Shown: piece by piece, positions 2,827 through 23,448 of the stretch
How the letters are laid out: each line of letters opens with the position of its first letter
Numbering within the stretch: the stretch's first letter is position 1
DNA from: a virus
Lineage: Duplodnaviria; Heunggongvirae; Uroviricota; Caudoviricetes
Strand: one strand, 5' to 3'
DNA length: 23,448 bases
Virus record (IMG/VR): IMGVR_UViG_2541047941_000006
Made by a program: the position numbers and the translations under genes
Notes under the pieces: generated by a model
Databases searched by the model: none
The model's input: only the letters and a program-made list of their open reading frames with translations
Told to the model about the DNA's origin: nothing

Positions 2827-3330
2827 TTATTGATAGTGTTTTATGTTCAGATAATGCCCGATGACTTTGTCATGCAGCTCCACCGATTTTGAGAACGACA
2901 GCGACTTCCGTCCCAGCCGTGCCAGGTGCTGCCTCAGATTCAGGTTATGCCGCTCAATTCGCTGCGTATATCGCTTGCTGATTACGTGCAGCTTTCCCTT
3001 CAGGCGGGATTCATACAGCGGCCAGCCATCCGTCATCCATATCACCACGTCAAAGGGTGACAGCAGGCTCATAAGACGCCCCAGCGTCGCCATAGTGCGT
3101 TCACCGAATACGTGCGCAACAACCGTCTTCCGGAGACTGTCATACGCGTAAAACAGCCAGCGCTGGCGCGATTTAGCCCCGACATAGCCCCACTGTTCGT
3201 CCATTTCCGCGCAGACGATGACGTCACTGCCCGGCTGTATGCGCGAGGTTACCGACTGCGGCCTGAGTTTTTTAAGTGACGTAAAATCGTGTTGAGGCCA
3301 ACGCCCATAATGCGGGCTGTTGCCCGGCAT
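2827..3330 (-). CDS. insB: IS1 InsB (expressed as InsAB' by -1 frameshift)
   Basis: 167-aa ORF overlapping the insA 3' end in the -1 frame, canonical IS1 arrangement. Confidence 0.85.
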
Positions 3331-3729: not shown

Positions 3730-4188
3730 TTATTTCAGGCATTGCGTCCTGATGTATTCCTGCAGGTAGTTAACCTGCGCGGTTATCTTGTCGATTCCAC
3801 TTCGGAGACGGTAATAATTGAGTTCAGCATCTGCTGTAAGTCCTGGGCTTTCTCCATCGCCCATGCCGCTGGCTCCGGTCGTTGACTTTGCACAGGTGGC
3901 GGCGACTTGCAGGCGCTTACGCCCAGCAGAAACATCAGCACGGAGACTTTCGATAGTCGCGTTAGCATCAGCAAGCTCCTTTGTGTATCTTGCGTCGAGT
4001 TCTGCTACATCACGTTGACGCTTCCGCATGTCAGCGATGGTGGCGTTCGCCTTCTCCAGTTCACTGGCCTTGTTATCGCGCTGCTCTTTGTAGGCGATTG
4101 CGTTATCACGGTAATGATTAACAGCCCATGACAGGCAGACGATGATGCAGATAACCAGAGCATAAATAATCGCGGCGACTCTGCTCAC
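3730..4188 (-). CDS. Rz: Rz inner-membrane spanin (i-spanin)
   Basis: ORF with N-terminal TMD ([28 protein letters not shown]) and coiled-coil-like body, closely resembling lambda Rz. Probable GTG start at 4188 (track ORF starts at TTG 4203); overlaps the endolysin stop. Confidence 0.8.
3783..3974 (-). CDS. Rz1: Rz1 outer-membrane lipoprotein spanin (o-spanin), embedded in Rz +1 frame
   Basis: 63-aa ORF wholly inside Rz; signal peptide with lipobox LLGVSAC followed by a Pro-rich segment ([16 protein letters not shown]), classic Rz1. Confidence 0.7.
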
Positions 4189-4718
4189 TGATCTATCCCC
4201 CAACAGGCTAATGCGCTTTCCTGGTCACGACGAATAACCTGTCCATAGCAGTTATTTGAACGTATGCGGCAATCGCGCCCACCATCTTTTATCCACCAGC
4301 GAATCGCCTCGCATGCACCTTTACGATCACCGGCATTCAGCCGCTTATAAAACGTCGACGGGAAACACTTACCGGGGCCAATGTTATAGGGACAAAATGA
4401 CGCGATACCCGCTTTCTGTGGTTCGGTCAGTGGCACTTTAATATTGCGCTCCACCCATGCCAGCGCCTTATCCCGTTCAATGGCGTTAACCTGGTCGCAT
4501 TTTTCCTTCGACAGTTTCATACCGGGAAAAACGGGTTTTCCATCCACCACCGTGGCACCCCGACAGATGGTCCAGATGCCGGAACCATCGCGGTATGCCG
4601 TTGTGTGGTTACCTTCTTTTTCATCCAGAAACTGGTCGAGAATATCAGGCGCAGGCGCACCGACGGCAATCAGTGCCAGAACGGCAGCCGACAGGCCGTA
4701 TCTGATTTTTGCGTTCAT
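4185..4718 (-). CDS. R: Phage endolysin (lysozyme), probable SAR type, RrrQ-like
   Basis: 177-aa ORF; weakly hydrophobic Ala/Gly-rich N-terminus ([17 protein letters not shown]) ahead of the catalytic domain; sits between the pinholin/ydfR-like genes and Rz. Confidence 0.85.
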
Positions 4719-6199: not shown

Positions 6200-7297
6200 A
6201 TGAAAAAATTAACAGTGGCAATTTCTGCTGTAGCTGCATCAGTACTGATGGCGATGTCTGCTCAGGCAGCTGAAATTTATAATAAAGACAGTAACAAGCT
6301 GGATCTGTACGGGAAAGTTAATGCTAAGCACTACTTCTCCTCTAATGATGCAGATGATGGTGATACTACTTATGCCCGTCTTGGCTTCAAAGGTGAAACC
6401 CAAATCAACGATCAACTGACTGGTTTCGGTCAGTGGGAATATGAATTCAAAGGCAACCGCGCTGAATCTCAAGGTTCCTCCAAAGACAAAACCCGTCTTG
6501 CATTTGCAGGCCTGAAATTCGGTGACTACGGCTCAATCGATTACGGCCGTAACTACGGTGTAGCATACGACATCGGTGCGTGGACTGACGTTCTGCCAGA
6601 ATTCGGTGGCGATACCTGGACCCAAACAGATGTGTTCATGACTGGTCGCACCACTGGTGTTGCAACCTATCGTAACAACGACTTCTTTGGTCTGGTTGAT
6701 GGTCTGAACTTTGCTGCTCAGTACCAAGGCAAAAACGATCGTAGCGATTTCGATAACTACACTGAAGGTAACGGTGATGGCTTCGGTTTCTCTGCTACCT
6801 ATGAATACGAAGGATTCGGTATCGGTGCAACTTATGCGAAATCTGATCGTACCGACACTCAAGTTAATGCAGGGAAAGTTCTTCCTGAAGTATTTGCTTC
6901 CGGTAAAAATGCAGAAGTTTGGGCCGCAGGTCTGAAATATGATGCTAACAACATTTACCTGGCCACTACCTATTCTGAAACCCAGAATATGACTGTATTT
7001 GCTGATCACTTCGTTGCTAATAAAGCCCAAAACTTCGAAGCTGTTGCACAATATCAGTTCGATTTCGGTCTGCGTCCGTCCGTTGCTTACCTGCAATCTA
7101 AAGGTAAGGATCTTGGAGTATGGGGCGATCAGGACTTAGTCAAATATGTTGATGTAGGTGCAACCTATTACTTCAACAAAAATATGTCTACTTTCGTTGA
7201 TTACAAAATCAACCTGCTTGACAAAAATGACTTCACTAAAGCACTCGGTGTAAGCACTGATGACATCGTTGCTGTAGGTCTGGTTTACCAGTTCTAA
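6200..7297 (+). CDS. nmpC: Outer-membrane general porin, prophage-encoded NmpC/Lc/OmpD type (intact)
   Basis: 365-aa ORF with signal peptide ([30 protein letters not shown]), porin motifs ([31 protein letters not shown]) and C-terminal VGLVYQF; lies between Q and the lysis genes on the opposite strand, as nmpC does in DLP12. Confidence 0.85.
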
Positions 7298-16494: not shown

Positions 16495-17280
16495 ATGAGT
16501 ACAGCACTCGCAACGCTGGCAGGGAGGCTGGCTGAACGTGTCGGCATGGATTCTGTCGACCCACAGGAACTGATCACCACTCTTCGCCAGACGGCATTTA
16601 AAGGTGATGCCAGCGATGCGCAGTTCATCGCATTGTTGATCGTCGCCAACCAGTACGGCCTTAATCCGTGGACGAAAGAAATTTACGCCTTCCCTGATAA
16701 GCAGAACGGCATCGTTCCGGTGGTGGGCGTTGATGGCTGGTCCCGTATCATCAATGAAAACCAGCAGTTTGATGGCATGGACTTTGAGCAGGACAATGAA
16801 TCCTGTACATGCCGGATTTACCGCAAGGACCGTAATCATCCGATCTGCGTTACCGAATGGATGGATGAATGCCGCCGCGAACCATTCAAAACTCGCGAAG
16901 GCAGAGAAATCACGGGGCCGTGGCAGTCGCATCCCAAACGGATGTTACGGCATAAAGCCATGATTCAGTGTGCCCGTCTGGCCTTCGGATTTGCTGGTAT
17001 CTATGACAAGGATGAAGCCGAGCGCATTGTCGAAAATACTGCATACACTGCAGAACGTCAGCCAGAACGCGACATCACTCCGGTTAACGATGAAACCATG
17101 CAGGAGATTAACACTCTGCTGATCGCCCTAGATAAAACATGGGATGACGACTTATTGCCGCTCTGTTCCCAGATATTTCGCCGCGACATTCGTGCATCGT
17201 CAGAACTGACACAGGCCGAAGCAGTAAAAGCTCTTGGATTCCTGAAACAGAAAGCCGCAGAGCAGAAGGTGGCAGCATGA
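16495..17280 (+). CDS. bet: Bet (Red-beta single-strand annealing protein)
   Basis: 261 aa [66 protein letters not shown]..., near-identical to recalled lambda Bet. Confidence 0.95.
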
Positions 17281-17957
17281 CACCGGACATTATCCTGCAG
17301 CGTACCGGGATCGATGTGAGAGCTGTCGAACAGGGGGATGATGCGTGGCACAAATTACGGCTCGGCGTCATCACCGCTTCAGAAGTTCACAACGTGATAG
17401 CAAAACCCCGCTCCGGAAAGAAGTGGCCTGACATGAAAATGTCCTACTTCCACACCCTGCTTGCCGAGGTTTGCACCGGTGTGGCTCCGGAAGTTAACGC
17501 TAAAGCACTGGCCTGGGGAAAACAGTACGAGAACGACGCCAGAACCCTGTTTGAGTTCACTTCCGGCGTGAATGTTATTGAATCCCCGATCATCTATCGC
17601 GACGAAAGTATGCGCACCGCCTGCTCTCCCGATGGTTTATGCAGTGACGGCAACGGCCTTGAACTGAAATGCCCGTTTACCTCCCGGGATTTCATGAAGT
17701 TCCGGCTCGGTGGTTTCGAGGCCATAAAATCGGCTTACATGGCCCAGGTGCAGTACAGCATGTGGGTGGCACGAAAAGATGCCTGGTACTTTGCCAACTA
17801 TGACCCGCGGATGAAGCGTGAAGGCCTGCATTATGTCGTGATTGAGCAGGATGAAAAGTATATGGCGAGTTTTGACGAGATGGTGCCGGAGTTCATCGAA
17901 AAAATGGACGAGGCACTGGCTGAAATTGGTTTTGTATTTGGGGAGCAATGGCGATGA
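17277..17957 (+). CDS. exo: Exo (lambda 5'-3' exonuclease, Red-alpha)
   Basis: 226 aa [65 protein letters not shown]...; ATGA overlap with bet. Confidence 0.95.
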
Positions 17958-18136
17958 AGCATCCTCACGATAATATCCGGGTAGGCGCGATCACTTTCGT
18001 CTACTCCGTTACAAAGCGAGGCTGGGTATTTCCCGGCCTTTCTGTTACCCGAAATCCCCTGAAAGCACAGCGGCTGGCTGAGGAGATAAATAATAAACGG
18101 GGAGCTGTATGCACAAAGCATCTCCTGTTGAGTTAA
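17948..18136 (+). CDS. Lambda orf60a-like small protein
   Basis: 62 aa [62 protein letters not shown]; immediately after exo as in lambda. Confidence 0.7.
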
Positions 18137-18300
18137 GAACGAGCATTGAGATGGCACATAGCCTCGCTCAAATTGGAGTCAGGTTTGTGCCAATACCAGT
18201 AGAAACAGACGAAGAATTTCATACGTTAGCCGCATCCCTTTCACAAAAGCTGGAAATGATGGTGGCGAAAGCAGAAGCAGATGAGAGAGACCAGGTATGA
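18109..18300 (+). CDS. Lambda orf63-like small protein
   Basis: 63 aa [63 protein letters not shown]; overlaps the orf60a end as in lambda. Confidence 0.7.
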   Translation: MHKASPVELRTSIEMAHSLAQIGVRFVPIPVETDEEFHTLAASLSQKLEMMVAKAEADERDQV

Positions 18301-18310
18301 CAACCACTGA

Positions 18311-18592
18311 ATGCATTTTTCTGGCTGCGGGCTTCATATTCTGTGTGCTTATGCTTGCCGACATGGGGCTTGTTCAGTGACACCTCAGCAGGAAAACGCC
18401 CTTCGCAGCATTGCCCGTCAGGCTAATTCTGAAATCAAAAAAGCCAGACAGCAGTTTCCGGATAAAAACGTCGATGACATTTGCCGTAGCGTACTGAAGA
18501 AGCACCGCGAAACGGTAACGCTGATGGGATTCACACCGACTCATTTAAGCCTGGCAATCGGCATGTTAAACGGCGTTTTTAAGGAACGGTGA
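18311..18592 (+). CDS. Lambda orf61-like small protein (start uncertain)
   Basis: C-terminal 71 aa (VTPQQENALRSIARQANSEIKKARQQFPDKNVDDICRSVLKKHRETVTLMGFTPTHLSLAIGMLNGVFKER) look protein-like; the N-terminal 22 aa from ATG 18311 are Cys/His-rich and may be untranslated; alternative GTG start at 18377. Confidence 0.5.
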   Translation: MHFSGCGLHILCAYACRHGACSVTPQQENALRSIARQANSEIKKARQQFPDKNVDDICRSVLKKHRETVTLMGFTPTHLSLAIGMLNGVFKER

Positions 18593-18690
18593 ACATGAAA
18601 AGCAAAATCATCAGGGAGCTACAGGCTCCTTTTTTATTATTCGCATTCACCCTCAAGCGTATTAACCAACAATTCAGGGATTAATGAAAG

Positions 18691-18912
18691 ATGGCGGACA
18701 TCATTGATTCAGCATCAGAAATTGAAGAATTACAGCGCAATACAGCAATAAAAATGCGTCGTCTGAACCACCAGGCTGTATCTGCCACTTATTGTTGTGA
18801 GTGTGGCGATCCCATAGATGAGCGAAGACGCCTGGCCGTTCAGGGTTGTCGGACTTGTGCAAGTTGCCAGGAAGATCTGGAGCTTATCAGTAAACAGAGA
18901 GGTTCGAAGTGA
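18691..18912 (+). CDS. TraR/DksA-family C4 zinc-finger protein (lambda Orf73-like)
   Basis: 73 aa with a CxxC...CxxC zinc finger (CCECGDPIDERRRLAVQGCRTC) at the C-terminus and a short N-terminal helix, matching the TraR family. Confidence 0.75.
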   Translation: MADIIDSASEIEELQRNTAIKMRRLNHQAVSATYCCECGDPIDERRRLAVQGCRTCASCQEDLELISKQRGSK

Positions 18913-19160
18913 GCGTAATTCACTCTCAGGCACTGCGTGAAGCGGCAGAGCAGGCAATGCATGACAACTGGGGATTTGACGCGGACCTTTTCCATGAGCT
19001 GGTAACACCATCGATTGTGCTGACACTGCTGGATGAACGGGAAAGAAACCAGCAATACATCAAACGCCGCGACCAGGAGAACGAGGATATTGCGCTAACG
19101 GTGGGGAAACTGCGTGTTGAGCTGGAGACAGCAAAAATCAAAACTCAACGAGCAGCGTGA
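18909..19160 (+). CDS. Hypothetical protein (ea22-position), possibly interrupted by an in-frame TGA
   Basis: 83-aa ORF from GTG 18909; after the TGA at 19158-19160 the same frame stays open for 54 more protein-like codons (VEGVISDGSKRIAELEAWVEYTRAAYVRAKDKGDLIRVITSQPTGFYAYVPCN) to about 19322. Confidence 0.4.
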   Translation: MSVIHSQALREAAEQAMHDNWGFDADLFHELVTPSIVLTLLDERERNQQYIKRRDQENEDIALTVGKLRVELETAKIKTQRAA

Positions 19161-19458
19161 GTAGAAGGTGTTATCTCGGATGGAAGTAAGCGTATTGCTG
19201 AACTGGAGGCCTGGGTTGAATACACAAGAGCTGCATACGTAAGAGCAAAAGACAAGGGAGATTTGATCAGAGTTATTACCAGCCAACCAACGGGATTTTA
19301 CGCTTACGTACCATGTAATTAGGAATCCTTGAAGTGGCAGCCTAACTGCGGATACACTGAAATGGCGATTTGGTAACATGTTTCGCACAAGGCTGTTACT
19401 ACGCTTAGAGATAATCAGCCATGATTAAACGCTTTGTAAAAAGTAAAAGGAAATTACA

Positions 19459-20073
19459 ATGAAAAAATCAATACTAATTTTAGGGCTTACGTTAATTGTC
19501 TCATCTCAAATACCATCGGCAATGGCAAAAAATGAATCAAAACTATGGGTTGTTGTTGATCGAACGGAAAGACATACCTGCCCTTCAAGTAAATGTGGAG
19601 TGGCTGGGAAACTATTTTTCAGGGAAGGCGTAGATTTTCTAGAAAAAAAAGGTGAATGGGTTCGTATAACTGAGCCATATTCAGCCTCATGTGTTGGAGG
19701 GGAAAGCGAATATATTAAAGAAGGTAATAAATCCTGCACAAGAAAAAATGGAATCGTTAATGGCAAGTTTTCAGAATGGGTTAAACTTAGTGATCTTAGC
19801 AGTGAAAGGCCATCAGATCCTGCTGAAAATGCGAGCGGAGATGATACTTTAATCAAAGGATCTGATGACTACCGTATATACAAAAAAGAGTTTTCTTCGG
19901 CAGCTAGGAAGTTAATAAATGAAGGGGTCTGCACGGAAAGCGATTTTAAGGAAATCGGAGGGTGGATGGCATCAAGCAATAAGGGTGAAAACATCTATTT
20001 CACATATTGCGGAGGAATGACGTTGTCGAACAGAATATACCTAGATGTTAAAAGTGGAAAGACTTTTAGATAA
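19459..20073 (+). CDS. Secreted Cys-containing protein with SH3b-like segments (prophage moron), unknown function
   Basis: 204 aa; signal peptide MKKSILILGLTLIVSSQIPSAMA/KNE; SH3b-like pattern (KLWVVVDRTERHTCPSSKCGVAGKLFFREGVDFLEKKGEWVRIT); AT-rich; RBS AAGGAAA; followed by a terminator. Confidence 0.7.
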   Translation: MKKSILILGLTLIVSSQIPSAMAKNESKLWVVVDRTERHTCPSSKCGVAGKLFFREGVDFLEKKGEWVRITEPYSASCVGGESEYIKEGNKSCTRKNGIVNGKFSEWVKLSDLSSERPSDPAENASGDDTLIKGSDDYRIYKKEFSSAARKLINEGVCTESDFKEIGGWMASSNKGENIYFTYCGGMTLSNRIYLDVKSGKTFR

Positions 20074-20145
20074 TATGATATTACCAATGACAGTATTGAT
20101 TTAATGCCTCCATAGAATTATCTCTAGGAAGTAGGTATAAGAAAA

Positions 20146-20178
20146 GCCCGCACAATTAGCTGCTGCGGGCTTTGTGTT
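20146..20178 (+). terminator. Intrinsic terminator after the secreted-protein gene
   Basis: GCCCGCA-caattagctgc-TGCGGGC hairpin followed by TTTGTGTTATT. Confidence 0.5.
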
Positions 20179-20366
20179 ATTCGCCATATTTTATGAAGCA
20201 AATACGACACTATAGATAATTAAGCGTTGCTGGTTGTCGATTCCTCAATCACTCCTGTGGATGGCTCTCTTCTTGTATGTGCCATTGAAGGGGAATATCG
20301 CGTAAAAAGATACCGGAAGTATCCGCGCCGCCATGATTGTCTTTCTCCTGATGCAGGAAAAGCAGA

Positions 20367-20705
20367 ATGGCTAAATCAGCAACAGAGCACAAAGCCGATC
20401 AGAGAGCCAAGCAAGCATCATCCGGTATGCGTAAGCTGGAGCTTGTACTTGATGCTCAGGAAATTGAAATGCTGGAGCGTAACTGTGCCACGCGTCGCTT
20501 CAGGCGTGCGCCTTGCGAGTTTGGTGAGTACATCGCGTTACTGAGCCGCCAGGATGATGCACGTGTGCGCTGGCGTATAAAATCGATCAGCAGAAAACGT
20601 TGCGGTAAGTGCGGCGAGAGAGTTCCTGTTAATTCATGCCCGTGTAATGGTGACTCACAATGCTGGGTGACCAAAGGCTGGCACGAAACAAAATTAATGA
20701 TATAA
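20367..20705 (+). CDS. Hypothetical protein with C-terminal Cys-rich zinc-ribbon-like motif
   Basis: 112 aa; RBS AGGAAA 6 nt upstream; C-terminal CGKCGERVPVNSCPCNGDSQC; basic N-terminal region; preferred over the overlapping 20227-20544 ORF, which has no RBS and odd composition. Confidence 0.55.
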   Translation: MAKSATEHKADQRAKQASSGMRKLELVLDAQEIEMLERNCATRRFRRAPCEFGEYIALLSRQDDARVRWRIKSISRKRCGKCGERVPVNSCPCNGDSQCWVTKGWHETKLMI

Positions 20706-20733
20706 ATCTCTGTGACATGTCACGGAGGCGGCA

Positions 20734-21162
20734 ATGAAATTAGACCAGCAATATCTAAAAGATCTACTTATCGCATTCGAAAAAACTCGTGGCCCTGACA
20801 CGATGCTTAGTGAACTAGAGGATAATGGCTTTAATAGATATGACCAAGATTTTATTTTCCATATGCGATTATTATGTGACTACGAATTAATAGTCAGGGT
20901 TGATGGAAAACCTGGGTTCGGTCATATAATGTCCAAAGCGTTAGGGGAAGGTGTTGGATATAGTTGGATCGAAGTACCACTGAGGTTGACAGCAAGAGGG
21001 CATGATTTTATTGCTGACTTACGTCAAAAGGATGTCTGGCAAGCTATAAAAACAAACTTTAAGGATGAGGGAATTAGTACACTTATGAGTGTTTCAAAAT
21101 CACTAGCAAAAGGCTTTGCAAGGAAAAAGATAAAAGATATTACAGGAATAGATATTGAATAA
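20734..21162 (+). CDS. Hypothetical protein (142 aa), low-GC
   Basis: Clean ORF with protein-like composition (MKLDQQYLKDLLIAFEKTRGPDTMLSELEDNGFNRYDQDFIFHMRLLCDYELIVRVDGKPGFGH...); RBS GGAGG upstream; no family recognised with confidence. Confidence 0.6.
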   Translation: MKLDQQYLKDLLIAFEKTRGPDTMLSELEDNGFNRYDQDFIFHMRLLCDYELIVRVDGKPGFGHIMSKALGEGVGYSWIEVPLRLTARGHDFIADLRQKDVWQAIKTNFKDEGISTLMSVSKSLAKGFARKKIKDITGIDIE

Positions 21163-21245
21163 TTCTTAGCATCAAGCAACTACTGCCTTTGGTGGAAATT
21201 ATATCTGAACTCGCTACGGCGAGTTTTGTTTTATGGAGATGATAA

Positions 21246-21413
21246 ATGCACTTCCGAGTCACAGGTGAATGGAATGGAGAGCCATTCAACAGGGTTATCG
21301 AAGCAGAGAACATCAACGACTGCTATAACCACTGGATGATATGGGCGCAGATAGCGCATGCAGACGTAACCAATATTCGAATTGAAGAACTGAAAGAACA
21401 CCAATCCGCCTGA
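21246..21413 (+). CDS. Small protein (55 aa) upstream of torI (YpdJ-position)
   Basis: ATG with RBS GGAG (7-nt spacer): MHFRVTGEWNGEPFNRVIEAENINDCYNHWMIWAQIAHADVTNIRIEELKEHQSA; stop lies in the loop of a terminator hairpin. Missed by the ORF track because it is under 60 aa. Confidence 0.5.
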   Translation: MHFRVTGEWNGEPFNRVIEAENINDCYNHWMIWAQIAHADVTNIRIEELKEHQSA

Positions 21414-21428
21414 TGGCGGTTTTTTATT
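21406..21428 (+). terminator. Intrinsic terminator after the 55-aa ORF
   Basis: CCGCC-tgat-GGCGG hairpin followed by TTTTTTATT. Confidence 0.55.
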
Positions 21429-21470
21429 GCCTGATTTGCAGGTTCGATTCCCTATTCGGAGATAGCACTC

Positions 21471-21671
21471 ATGCAACACGAACTACAGCCTGATTCACTG
21501 GTTGATTTGAAATTCATCATGGCTGATACTGGCTTCGGTAAGACCTTCATCTATGACCGGATTAAGTCCGGCGACCTGCCTAAAGCCAAAGTTATCCACG
21601 GGCGAGCAAGATGGTTATATCGTGACCATTGTGAATTCAAAAATAAGCTCTTAAGCCGCGCCAATGGGTAA
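21471..21671 (+). CDS. torI: Excisionase / recombination directionality factor, AlpA-family HTH (TorI-like)
   Basis: 66 aa MQHELQPDSLVDLKFIMADTGFGKTFIYDRIKSGDLPKAKVIHGRARWLYRDHCEFKNKLLSRANG; winged-helix excisionase pattern; last gene before the att core at the end opposite the integrase, as in KplE1. Confidence 0.8.
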   Translation: MQHELQPDSLVDLKFIMADTGFGKTFIYDRIKSGDLPKAKVIHGRARWLYRDHCEFKNKLLSRANG

Positions 21672-21744
21672 AATAGCGGGTAAAATATTTCTCACATCTA
21701 AAAAACACCATTCCAATCAATCCCCTGCCGCTTCAAGTAGATGT

Positions 21745-21759
21745 CTGCAGGGGACACCA
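21745..21759. other. attR core: 15-bp copy of a tRNA-Arg (argW-like) 3' end
   Basis: CTGCAGGGGACACCA, the acceptor-stem/CCA 3' end of a tRNA, present as an isolated fragment 74 bp after torI; no full tRNA around it. Confidence 0.65.
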
Positions 21760-22200
21760 GATACCCTTCAAACGAAATCTACCTTCACCCCGTAAAAGAT
21801 GGGTTTGGCAGCACACTTGCCTTATATCTACTCATTTTTACTGCAACAGGTTGAAATCTCAGCACTGTCAGAAAGCGCTGATGACTAAACAGCCCTGGGC
21901 CGGGCGATGTAACCATCACACAGAATCCTGATAGCGAAATATGGCGTGACTCGATACTTCACTCCGCAATGCATTCCTTGATGAATTCGCAGGACCGTGA
22001 TACACGGGACAGGTCACTGAATGACGACAATGTCCTGGAAATCAGCGAACCGCGCATCTGAAGTACATTTGAGCGACTGTACCAGAACATGAATGAGGCG
22101 TTTGGATTAGGCGATTATTAGCAGGGCTAAGCATTTTACTATTATTATTTTCCGGTTGAGGGATATAGAGCTATCGACAACAACCGGAAAAAGTTTACGT

Positions 22201-23448
22201 CTATATTGCTGAAGGTACAGGCGTTTCCATAACTATTTGCTCGCGTTTTTTACTCAAGAAGAAAATGCCAAATAGCAACATCAGGCAGACAATACCCGAA
22301 ATTGCGAAGAAAACTGTCTGGTAGCCTGCGTGGTCAAAGAGTATCCCAGTCGGCGTTGAAAGCAGCACAATCCCAAGCGAACTGGCAATTTGAAAACCAA
22401 TCAGAAAGATCGTCGACGACAGGCGCTTATCAAAATTTGCCACGCTGTATTTGAAGACGGATATGACACAAAGTGGAACCTCAATAGCATGTAACAGCTT
22501 CACTAATGAAATAATCCAGGGGTTAACGAACAGCGCGCAGGAAAGGATACGCAACGCCATAATCACAACACCGATAAGTAATGCATTTTTTGGCCCTACC
22601 CGATTCACAAAGAAAGGAATAATCGCCATGCATAGCGCTTCGAGTACCACCTGGAATGAGTTGAGATAACCATACAGGCGCGTTCCTACATCGTGTGATT
22701 CGAATAAACCTGCATAAAAGACAGGAAAAAGTTGTTGATCAAAAATGTTATAGAAAGACCACGTCCCCACAATAAATATGACGAAAACCCAGAAGTTTCG
22801 ATCCTTGAAAACTGCGATAAAATCCTCTTTTTTTACCCCTCCCGCATCCGCCGCTACGCACTGGTGATCCTTATCTTTAAAACACATGTTGATCATCATA
22901 AATACAGCGCCAAATAGCGAGACCAACCAGAAGTTGATATGGGGACTGATACTAAAAAATATGCCGGCAAAGAACGCGCCAATAGCATAGCCAAAAGATC
23001 CCCAGGCGCGCGCTGTTCCATATTCGAAATGAAAATTTCGCGCCATTTTTTCGGTGAAGCTGTCAAGCAAACCGCATCCCGCCAGATACCCCAGGCCAAA
23101 AAAGAGCGCCCCCAGAATTAGACCTACAGAAAAATTGCTTTGCAGTAACGGTTCATAAACGTAAATCATAAACGGTCCGGTCAAGACCAGGATGAAACTC
23201 ATACACCAGATGAGCGGTTTCTTCAGACCGAGTTTATCCTGAACGATGCCGTAGAACATCATAAATAGAATGCTGGTAAACTGGTTGACCGAATAAAGTG
23301 TACCTAATTCCGTCCCTGTCAACCCTAGATGTCCTTTCAGCCAAATAGCGTATAACGACCACCACAGCGACCAGGAAATAAAAAAGAGAAATGAGTAACT
23401 GGATGCAAAACGATAGTACGCATTTCTGAATGGAATATTCAGTGCCAT
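22201..23448 (-). CDS. cscB: Sucrose:H+ symporter, LacY-family MFS permease (CscB)
   Basis: 415-aa 12-TMD ORF whose start codon is the last base of the window; MALNIPFRNAYYRFASSYSFLFFISWSLWWSLYAIWLKGHLG... recalled as CscB; oligosaccharide:H+ symporter family motifs. Confidence 0.85.
   Translation of the reverse strand: MALNIPFRNAYYRFASSYSFLFFISWSLWWSLYAIWLKGHLGLTGTELGTLYSVNQFTSILFMMFYGIVQDKLGLKKPLIWCMSFILVLTGPFMIYVYEPLLQSNFSVGLILGALFFGLGYLAGCGLLDSFTEKMARNFHFEYGTARAWGSFGYAIGAFFAGIFFSISPHINFWLVSLFGAVFMMINMCFKDKDHQCVAADAGGVKKEDFIAVFKDRNFWVFVIFIVGTWSFYNIFDQQLFPVFYAGLFESHDVGTRLYGYLNSFQVVLEALCMAIIPFFVNRVGPKNALLIGVVIMALRILSCALFVNPWIISLVKLLHAIEVPLCVISVFKYSVANFDKRLSSTIFLIGFQIASSLGIVLLSTPTGILFDHAGYQTVFFAISGIVCLMLLFGIFFLSKKREQIVMETPVPSAI

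Follow-up and report, generated by a model that had tools for sequence, protein, structure and literature searches.

The question raised by this locus is what three small genes located directly in front of the excisionase gene torI of a prophage are, and what they do there. The DNA analyzed (IMG/VR record IMGVR_UViG_2541047941_000006; in the following "the window", by which the whole stretch of 23,448 nt is meant) is essentially one defective lambdoid prophage at argW, equipped with an intS/torI integration module of the KplE1 type. The three genes, here called ORF112, ORF142 and ORF55, form a cluster extending from position 20367 to 21413, all on the plus strand. Between the first two of them lies a perfect palindrome, whose linkage to ORF112 is the main result reported here. 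The elements in question are:

20367 to 20705, plus strand: ORF112, a member of the epsilon15 gp49 / phiV10 p55 / PHROG 536 family (phrog_536, E 7.3e-48 over residues 1-111), a predicted small DNA-binding regulator.
20712 to 20723, no strand assigned: a perfect 12-bp palindrome, GTGACATGTCAC (GTGAC-AT-GTCAC), the candidate operator of ORF112, between the ORF112 stop codon and the Shine-Dalgarno sequence of ORF142.
20734 to 21162, plus strand: ORF142, a DUF2513 protein (PF10711; 42.7 bits in Pfam versus a cut-off of 29.6 bits, profile positions 1-100 of 100).
21246 to 21413, plus strand: ORF55, the orthologue of lambda orf55 (lambdap35, NP_597778; 96.4% identity over 55/55 residues; phrog_676, E 3.6e-39).

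Taken as a whole, the locus is best explained as a set of accessory genes closing the pL operon, in which ORF112 would bind its palindrome, the DUF2513 protein would be a regulator and the third product is Orf55 of lambda. We regard this explanation as reasonably probable.

A preliminary description of the DNA had placed three small open reading frames (ORFs) of 112, 142 and 55 amino acids (aa) at 20367-20705, 20734-21162 and 21246-21413 on the plus strand. All of them were found there, intact and preceded by a Shine-Dalgarno-like sequence (AGGA 10-13 nt upstream of the ATG start of ORF112, GGAGG upstream of ORF142, GGAG 8 nt upstream of ORF55). They are genuine genes of unproven function. A chance origin is refuted by PHROG matches (E values of 7e-48, 2e-34 and 4e-39 for ORF112, ORF142 and ORF55, respectively), by the DUF2513 match above the cut-off, by hundreds of homologues of constant length and by purifying selection, the pairwise ratio of nonsynonymous to synonymous substitutions (dN/dS) lying between 0.08 and 0.35 (0.10-0.35 for ORF112, 0.16 for ORF142 and 0.08-0.22 for ORF55). 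The 55-aa ORF, which had rightly been described as possessing a ribosome binding site and a terminator and as missing from the ORF track, was lost there only under a 60-aa filter; it is present in full length in 85 phage records. The 142-aa gene is AT-rich as claimed, with a GC content of about 0.38-0.41 versus about 0.50-0.52 over ORF112.

PHROG 536, to which ORF112 belongs, is a small family with 179 representatives among 1.8e9 proteins, and Pfam contains no model for it. The homologues of ORF112 fall into 394 clusters, nearly all of 112 aa. Its members include gp49 of epsilon15, p55 of phiV10, gp22 of ZF40 and proteins encoded by P2-like Yersinia phages and by Aeromonas phages. Whatever the context, the gene is part of an early operon, and often it is the final one ahead of a terminator. 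Close homologues were examined from E. coli, Chlobot, a Klebsiella phage, ZF40, lambdoid prophages of Salmonella and Citrobacter, Cronobacter, Yersinia frederiksenii and epsilon15. Every one of them, whatever follows the gene, showed the exact core TGACATGTCA at the stop codon or at most 10 nt after it, while phiV10 contained it with one mismatch. The TGA stop codon is itself part of the palindrome in many homologues, and right after the palindrome the sequences of close homologues diverge completely. In the window, the palindrome is extended to the 14-mer TGTGACATGTCACG (20711-20724). It is unchanged in the spacers of E. coli, Cronobacter and Yersinia, despite saturated synonymous sites between the respective genes. 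In Enterobacter mori, a 3' stub of ORF112 and the palindrome are all that is left before DUF2513.

The linkage was also observed with distant relatives. Near four out of six homologues with 25-40% identity we detected the variant GTGACGCGTCAC (GTGAC-GC-GTCAC), which overlaps the stop codon in two of them, follows it with one mismatch in the third and is situated 140 nt downstream in the fourth. The remaining two disclosed no convincing palindrome site, and a homologue of an Aeromonas phage (29% identity) had near its stop codon only the 6-bp sequence ACGCGT, which is uninformative. A linkage so tight and deep, across lineages, of an unstudied phage protein family to a perfect palindrome at the stop of its gene is new; our literature search found no paper mentioning the 12-mer in a phage context.

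Whole genomes were searched as well. Three exact copies each were present in epsilon15, Tyrion and ZF40, about 0.04 being expected per genome, and phiV10 harbored two exact palindromes and, at the third of the conserved positions, a copy with one mismatch. By comparison, 63 control loci without an ORF112 gene (464 kb) yielded zero copies. The positions conserved in epsilon15-like phages follow terL, the last structural gene and gp49, respectively. Each of them has an intrinsic terminator beside it, and two of the three are at convergent gene junctions. The coordinates of GTGACATGTCAC are 2143, 19518 and 39613 in epsilon15, 2263, 19494 and 39102 in phiV10, and 2703, 20378 and 41756 in Tyrion; at several of these sites the last gene has its stop codon in the TGA of the palindrome, and epsilon15 has an extra one-mismatch copy overlapping the Rz stop (26619). 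One of the ZF40 copies follows gp22, the other two being located inside coding sequence (gp08 and the cII-like gp12). Scanning IMG/VR for TGTGACATGTCACG gave at least 128 sites. Among the matches listed, 40 abut an ORF112 homologue, 49 further sites have epsilon15-like or ZF40-like flanks and 39 are in unrelated contexts. On some of these viral contigs the palindrome is embedded in arrays of GTGACA/CGTGAC-type hexamer repeats resembling iterons; on others the 14-mer forms the start of a Q-antiterminator-like ORF (ATG CGT GAC ATG TCA CAG). A binding site for CRP/FNR was rejected: the half-sites resemble TGTGA/TCACA, but their spacing is TGA-N4-TCA and not TGA-N6-TCA.

The pattern of sites suggests that the palindrome is the operator of ORF112, as a candidate proposed from sequence. 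Alternatively, some other factor might bind it, or it might be a recombination sequence at module boundaries, so that its linkage to ORF112 would reflect the shared ancestry of a mobile cassette. The full divergence directly after the palindrome in every context agrees with such an origin, and so do the epsilon15-like sites, which separate packaging, structural and early modules, the Enterobacter mori locus, which has kept the palindrome and DUF2513 with no more than the stub of ORF112, and the 39 of the at least 128 listed IMG/VR sites lying in unrelated contexts. Simple DNA ancestry, however, does not match a linkage that holds down to 25% protein identity with the centre changed from AT to GC. 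Besides, 12 bp is very short for homologous recombination, and phages bearing the gene possess several copies while the control DNA possesses none. On balance, we think a foreign factor or a boundary sequence unlikely.

The palindrome could also work as RNA, either as a hairpin that masks the Shine-Dalgarno sequence of DUF2513, with translational coupling to the termination of ORF112, or as a processing or 3'-end stabilizing element. In the window the hairpin does grow to a 9-bp stem in which GGAGG is paired (-10.8 kcal/mol, z score -2.6). The TGA stop inside the palindrome of many homologues and the terminators nearby in several phages point in the same direction. However, the stem extension covering the Shine-Dalgarno sequence is not conserved in Cronobacter or Yersinia, in which only the core of 10-12 bp is kept, and this core alone would give a stem of 4-5 bp with a loop of 2-4 nt. 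The palindrome is moreover kept where DUF2513 does not follow, and the sites at convergent junctions and those inside the ZF40 genes fit no single RNA role. A function at the RNA level is in our opinion quite improbable.

We now turn to ORF112 itself. A zinc-ribbon-like cysteine motif had been noticed at the C-terminus of the 112-aa protein and is indeed there (C79-x2-C82...C91-x-C93...C99 plus H106). In the alignment of close homologues C40, C79, C82, C91, C93 and C99 are invariant; when 59 diverse members were aligned, C79 and C82 remained invariant and C99 was found in at least 90%. The layout of these 59 proteins starts with a basic helix (R-K-x2-Q-R-x-R) and a short hydrophobic strand, continues with two helices harboring a conserved P-Y ... 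E-Y-x3-L-I motif and a linker helix, and ends with a zinc ribbon of the form C-x2-C-G-x2-L-P ... C ... C-W/F. Profile matches to ribbon-helix-helix (RHH) proteins were weak, both for ORF112 (NF008671, YbfE, E 0.007, 16.8 bits versus a cut-off of 62 bits) and for the 5 of 59 members that matched RHH_5, RepB-RCR_reg or RHH_1 (E 0.01-0.07). Searches of the PDB by sequence with each of the three proteins of the cluster singly yielded nothing meaningful.

ORF112 shares with RHH regulators (Arc/MetJ/CopG, YbfE of E. coli, ArtA of pSK41) the small size, the basic N-terminal arm followed by a predicted strand-helix-helix and a presumed target in the form of a short perfect palindrome. ArtA, an RHH protein of pSK41, recognizes ACATGACATGT-type sites, which for ORF112 is an analogy only. 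Unlike these regulators, ORF112 has sub-threshold sequence support and no confident model, it carries a C-terminal zinc ribbon in addition, and its presumed site lies at the 3' end of its own gene, in contrast to the classical RHH repressors, whose sites are upstream of their target genes. The second likeness is to the C4 zinc fingers of TraR/DksA, including Orf73 of lambda. The C-x2-C-G-x2-(L/I)-P ... G-x3-C knuckle of ORF112 resembles the TraR finger, and PDB profiles of TraR and YbiI gave weak matches to it (E 0.07-0.08); these found no backing in hhalign against the Orf73/TraR alignment, which reached 45% probability over 26 columns only. The second CxxC of the TraR-type finger is absent, the ORF112 family having just one Cys there, with Trp or Phe after it, and there is no sign of a coiled coil entering the secondary channel of the RNA polymerase.

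A further comparison is with gp49 of epsilon15 and p55 of phiV10, which are 70-87% identical to ORF112, have 112 aa and the same conserved cysteines and show the same palindrome at the stop codon. Proteins of this family are labelled either "hypothetical" or "transcriptional regulator", and the latter designation, given to epsilon15 gp49 and PHROG 536, is annotation and not experiment; the epsilon15 record notes a similarity to gp46 of N15, and nothing functional on gp49 was found in the literature. The gene closes the early-right operon of epsilon15-like phages, where a terminator and terS come directly after it, and two further palindromes occupy other operon ends. ORF112 of the window differs from it by its position in an early-left operon, by the single palindrome and by the lack of a terminator after the gene. 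A late-gene activator of epsilon15-like phages was also considered for this family; the idea is weakened by the lambdoid prophages, in which the gene coexists with Q antiterminators in the nin region.

In the mechanism that we infer, from DNA binding by ORF112 and early expression from pL to every effect downstream, an ORF112 dimer would bind GTGAC-N2-GTCAC at the 3' end of its gene. Here the sole site lies between the ORF112 stop and the ribosome binding site of DUF2513, so that binding would act on pL transcription into DUF2513, orf55 and torI. At operon ends and convergent junctions, as in epsilon15-like phages, the bound protein may form a roadblock that aids termination or insulates transcription units; it is the position of these palindromes at operon ends beside intrinsic terminators which suggests a roadblock or insulator. 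More speculatively, and with considerable doubt on our side, the ORF112 family might constitute an undescribed class of small phage DNA-binding proteins (RHH-like plus zinc ribbon) that recognize GTGAC-N2-GTCAC at operon ends, in many cases across the stop of the last gene and beside intrinsic terminators, acting there as protein-dependent bidirectional insulators or termination enhancers and, in this prophage, gating the read-through from pL into DUF2513, orf55 and torI.

Several points weigh against assigning this role to ORF112. The roles of ORF112 and DUF2513 are deduced from sequence and models, and operators do not usually sit at the 3' end of the gene that encodes their regulator. The AlphaFold2 (AF2) monomer of ORF112 was poor (predicted local distance difference test, pLDDT, of 53, from an alignment of 22 sequences); its helices were placed as expected, but the fold was not predicted with confidence. 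Because of this model, an RHH fold is not established. To the 39 IMG/VR sites in unrelated contexts must be added that this prophage and the whole Chlobot genome contain a single palindrome each, for which reason any regulon role of the epsilon15 type is not reproduced here. Furthermore, the prophage is defective. Three chromosomal copies of ORF112 were read in E. coli, of which two have an in-frame TGA (the third, in the P22-like prophage L091, is intact), and the allele of the window is changed at near-invariant positions (P45F and Y50C). The copy of the window may be dispensable.

This raises the possibility that ORF112 is here a hitch-hiking, decaying remnant, captured by illegitimate recombination along with a fragment of umuD, and that only DUF2513 and orf55 matter, if anything does. 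The truncated S24 peptidase fragment indeed flanks ORF112, substitutions hit positions conserved in at least 90% of the homologues, and the dN/dS of ORF112 rises to 0.27-0.35 against its nearest intact relatives. Many representatives of the family are fragments, and the host prophage has no virion genes. The chromosomal copies with the TGA are 96-98% identical, and a single in-frame TGA replaces Cys79 in strain TL20 (6268-6606 of its locus) or Cys40 in strain 13C1065T (4141-4479); both are called pseudogenes by the Prokaryotic Genome Annotation Pipeline (PGAP). Yet the gene of the window is intact and its product 100% identical to that of Chlobot, an isolated plaque-forming phage, and an intact cluster at 99% identity comprises 173 member sequences. 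Its dN/dS is still well below 1, and there is perfect conservation of both the palindrome and the spacer in front of DUF2513. Decay of ORF112 appears rather improbable to us.

ORF142, the partner downstream of the palindrome, is probably a separate winged-helix DNA-binding regulator, as judged from its model. The predicted fold (AF2, pLDDT 92) consists of an N-terminal winged helix-turn-helix (HTH) of the MarR/PadR/TubR type and C-terminal helices. PF10711 is carried by all of its homologues, which number hundreds and are of constant length. The protein nevertheless differs from MarR/PadR-type regulators, to which it has a sequence identity of only 8-20%, and DUF2513 lacks a ligand-binding or MarR dimerization signature; it is a distinct Pfam family with no studied member. 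The searchable literature on DUF2513 contained nothing functional and one unrelated mention, and a fold search of BFVD with it returned only uncharacterized or generic HTH proteins.

ORF112 and DUF2513 are adjacent, with the same spacer of about 28 nt, in Cronobacter (60% and 61% identity, respectively), in Yersinia (47% and 64%) and in a P22-like E. coli prophage. The two genes are passed on together, as a cassette, in four lineages, but each of them is also found alone. A toxin-antitoxin pair made up of an RHH antitoxin and DUF2513 was rejected on account of the winged-helix nature of DUF2513 and of this separate occurrence of the genes. KplE1-like prophages of Serratia (with YfdP, YfdQ/DUF2303 and a ParB-like protein) contain DUF2513 without ORF112 or the palindrome; there, a gene for an Rv2179c-like exonuclease, a small AlpA/Xis-like gene and an integrase gene follow 3' of DUF2513.

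The third gene needs the elements around it, which are:

21207 to 21226, plus strand: a terminator-like hairpin upstream of the ORF55 ribosome binding site (RNA fold -11.9 kcal/mol, z score -3.2).
21406 to 21428, plus strand: a rho-independent terminator over the ORF55 stop codon (-9.6 kcal/mol); it is conserved, and HK140 has an annotation for the same terminator.
21471 to 21671, plus strand: torI, the KplE1/CPS-53 excisionase gene, whose product is 100% identical to TorI of K-12; it is given as context, outside the cluster.

By sequence, ORF55 is lambda orf55, the last gene of the exo-xis region, followed by a terminator and then by an excisionase gene. Its identity to ORF55 of phage 434 is likewise 96.4%, and the DNA is 95% identical to and collinear with lambda over 21198-21433, ending 20 bp before the position of the lambda xis ATG. 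The TGA of ORF55 lies inside a 5-bp G+C stem (21406-21419), which is followed by TTTTTTATT. The upstream hairpin has the structure GAACTCGC-TACG-GCGAGTTT plus a T-run and was inherited from lambda, the homology starting at 21198. With this hairpin upstream and the terminator at the stop codon, ORF55 is bracketed by two terminator-like hairpins. The sole functional statement on Orf55 that we found comes from a modelling paper, in which it is predicted to have a three-strand, one-helix fold like Gp2 of T7 and RNA polymerase binding is speculated (PMC8614690; modelling only). ORF55 probably acts as in lambda, and binding of RNA polymerase in the manner of Gp2 is a proposal derived from that model.

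The position of the whole cluster resembles that of the lambda exo-xis region (orf60a, orf63, orf61, orf73, ea22, ea8.5, orf55), whose genes modulate the choice between lysis and lysogeny without being essential (PMC3824215, PMC8614690). In both cases the genes lie between exo and the excisionase gene in the distal pL operon, and the window retains orf60a/orf63/orf61-type genes, a homologue of Orf73/TraR, a remnant of ea22 and orf55 itself. The excisionase, by contrast, is TorI of KplE1 and not Xis of lambda. Judged by sequence and gene order, the interval would be the promoter-distal end of an early-left (pL-type) operon, matching the non-essential exo-xis region of lambda, and would be expressed early from pL. 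The prophage comprises, in this order, intS (1-1158), an AraC-type gene, IS1 (2827-3330), lysozyme, a porin gene (6200-7297), P, O, a YdaT-like gene and an S24-type cI repressor, after which the early-left arm runs through sieB, ral, cIII, kil, gam, bet, exo, the orf60a/63/61-type genes, the Orf73/TraR homologue and a truncated ea22. Its right end is torI followed by the attachment site attR. The gene content of the window includes no terminase, head, tail or other virion genes.

Homology to lambda DNA covers 17105-19207 and 21198-21433. The approximately 2 kb between these segments (19208-21197) are foreign, replace the C-terminal part of ea22 as well as ea8.5, and carry the gene of a 204-aa secreted protein, a umuD fragment, ORF112 and ORF142. 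The same block exists in Chlobot, an isolated lambdoid phage, at 98% DNA identity (ORF112 100%, ORF142 99% identical), where it is placed before a lambda-type xis/int unrelated to TorI. In the P22-like E. coli prophage the order is ASCH, ORF112, DUF2513, orf55, a 114-aa gene and int.

The preliminary description had tentatively suggested a similarity of the cluster to yfdT/ypdJ-like genes of KplE1 and had pointed to regulators of excision or anti-defence genes next to an excisionase. We found no similarity to YfdT (101 aa), YpdJ (46 aa), YfdS or YfdR, the best blastp hit having an E value of 0.047 over 26 residues. Compared with the yfdT-ypdJ-torI interval of K-12 (KplE1/CPS-53; blastn and blastp), the window shares an identical torI, the identical 50 bp upstream of it and the same attR, with homology confined to 21421-21759, i.e., torI, its 50-bp leader and attR. 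All DNA upstream of the terminator T-tract is unrelated, since DNA homology starts only at 21421, 3' of the ORF55 terminator. The idea of regulators beside the excisionase gene fared better in one part: two of the three products are predicted to bind DNA, and regulators are plausible. The genes are not specific to excisionase neighbourhoods, however: ORF112 homologues are also found within nin regions, close the early operon of epsilon15 and follow gpA in P2-like phages. Models of PADLOC-DB disclosed no defence family at E <= 0.1 for the three proteins or the 204-aa neighbour.

One may still ask whether the cluster is the equivalent of the yfdT-ypdJ interval, containing excision regulators or anti-defence genes proper to the neighbourhood of an excisionase. 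The three genes do lie directly upstream of torI, DUF2513 is found a few genes upstream of xis/int in the KplE1-like prophages of Serratia, and a block of read-through by ORF112 at the palindrome would indirectly modulate the transcription of torI, a consequence that we deduce. Against this stand, apart from the lack of YfdT/YpdJ/YfdS/YfdR similarity, of K-12 homology before 21421 and of any PADLOC match, the occurrence of the same genes at a great distance from any excisionase gene, namely within nin regions, ahead of terminase genes and behind gpA of P2, and the block of Chlobot, which fronts an unrelated Xis of the lambda type. We judge such an equivalence to be very unlikely. The genes are plausibly regulatory, are neither yfdT/ypdJ-like nor tied to excision, and the gene content is that of ordinary lambdoid accessory DNA.

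It is within the T-tract of the ORF55 terminator (21421-21433) that the lambda-type module joins the KplE1-type one. KplE1-type prophages have a different hairpin at that spot with the same TTTTTATTGCCTGA tail. Recombination has apparently taken place at analogous terminators, as the joint lies in the T-tract and a KplE1 terminator with the same tail occupies the equal position.

At the other end of the foreign segment, the 204-aa protein is encoded by 19459-20073, a low-GC stretch (about 0.37-0.40). It has an N-terminal signal peptide (MKKSILILGLTLIVSSQIPSAMA), matches PHROG 8310 (E 2e-136) and shows a weak SH3_3 match; 3' of its gene, at about 20146-20180, there is a GCCCGCA...TGCGGGC hairpin with a T-rich tail. 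The gene looks like a moron inserted into the exo-xis region. It is followed by the fragment already mentioned:

20227 to 20334, plus strand: an internal fragment of a gene for a UmuD/HumD-type S24 peptidase, a pseudogene remnant (weak Pfam Peptidase_S24 match).

PGAP labels the identical stretch as incomplete "DNA repair protein" or "S24 family peptidase". A spurious 105-aa ORF (20227-20544) arises from the fragment and overlaps ORF112 in another frame. In the annotation of Chlobot this ORF is named "UmuD-like protein", and ORF112 is shortened to 46 codons (141 nt). Rfam detected no known RNA in 19000-22200 at E <= 1. A LexA box was sought and dismissed, none being present near the cluster; the sole CTGT-N8-ACAG of the window is inside cI and compatible with chance. 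Beyond attR (21760-23448) there is, unlike in K-12, no dsdC. This part contains a 415-aa gene on the minus strand (22201-23448), which may resemble the sucrose permease CscB.

The cluster as it had first been described consists of ordinary, conserved accessory genes of the exo-xis region, and the linkage of ORF112 to its palindrome is a new and testable lead. If the pairing of gp49/ORF112 with GTGACATGTCAC proves true, it could reveal how these temperate phages delimit their transcription units and, for lambdoid prophages, whether there is a modulation of the read-through that enters the excisionase gene. An operator of ORF112, if real, would also provide the first functional handle on DUF2513, its travelling partner.

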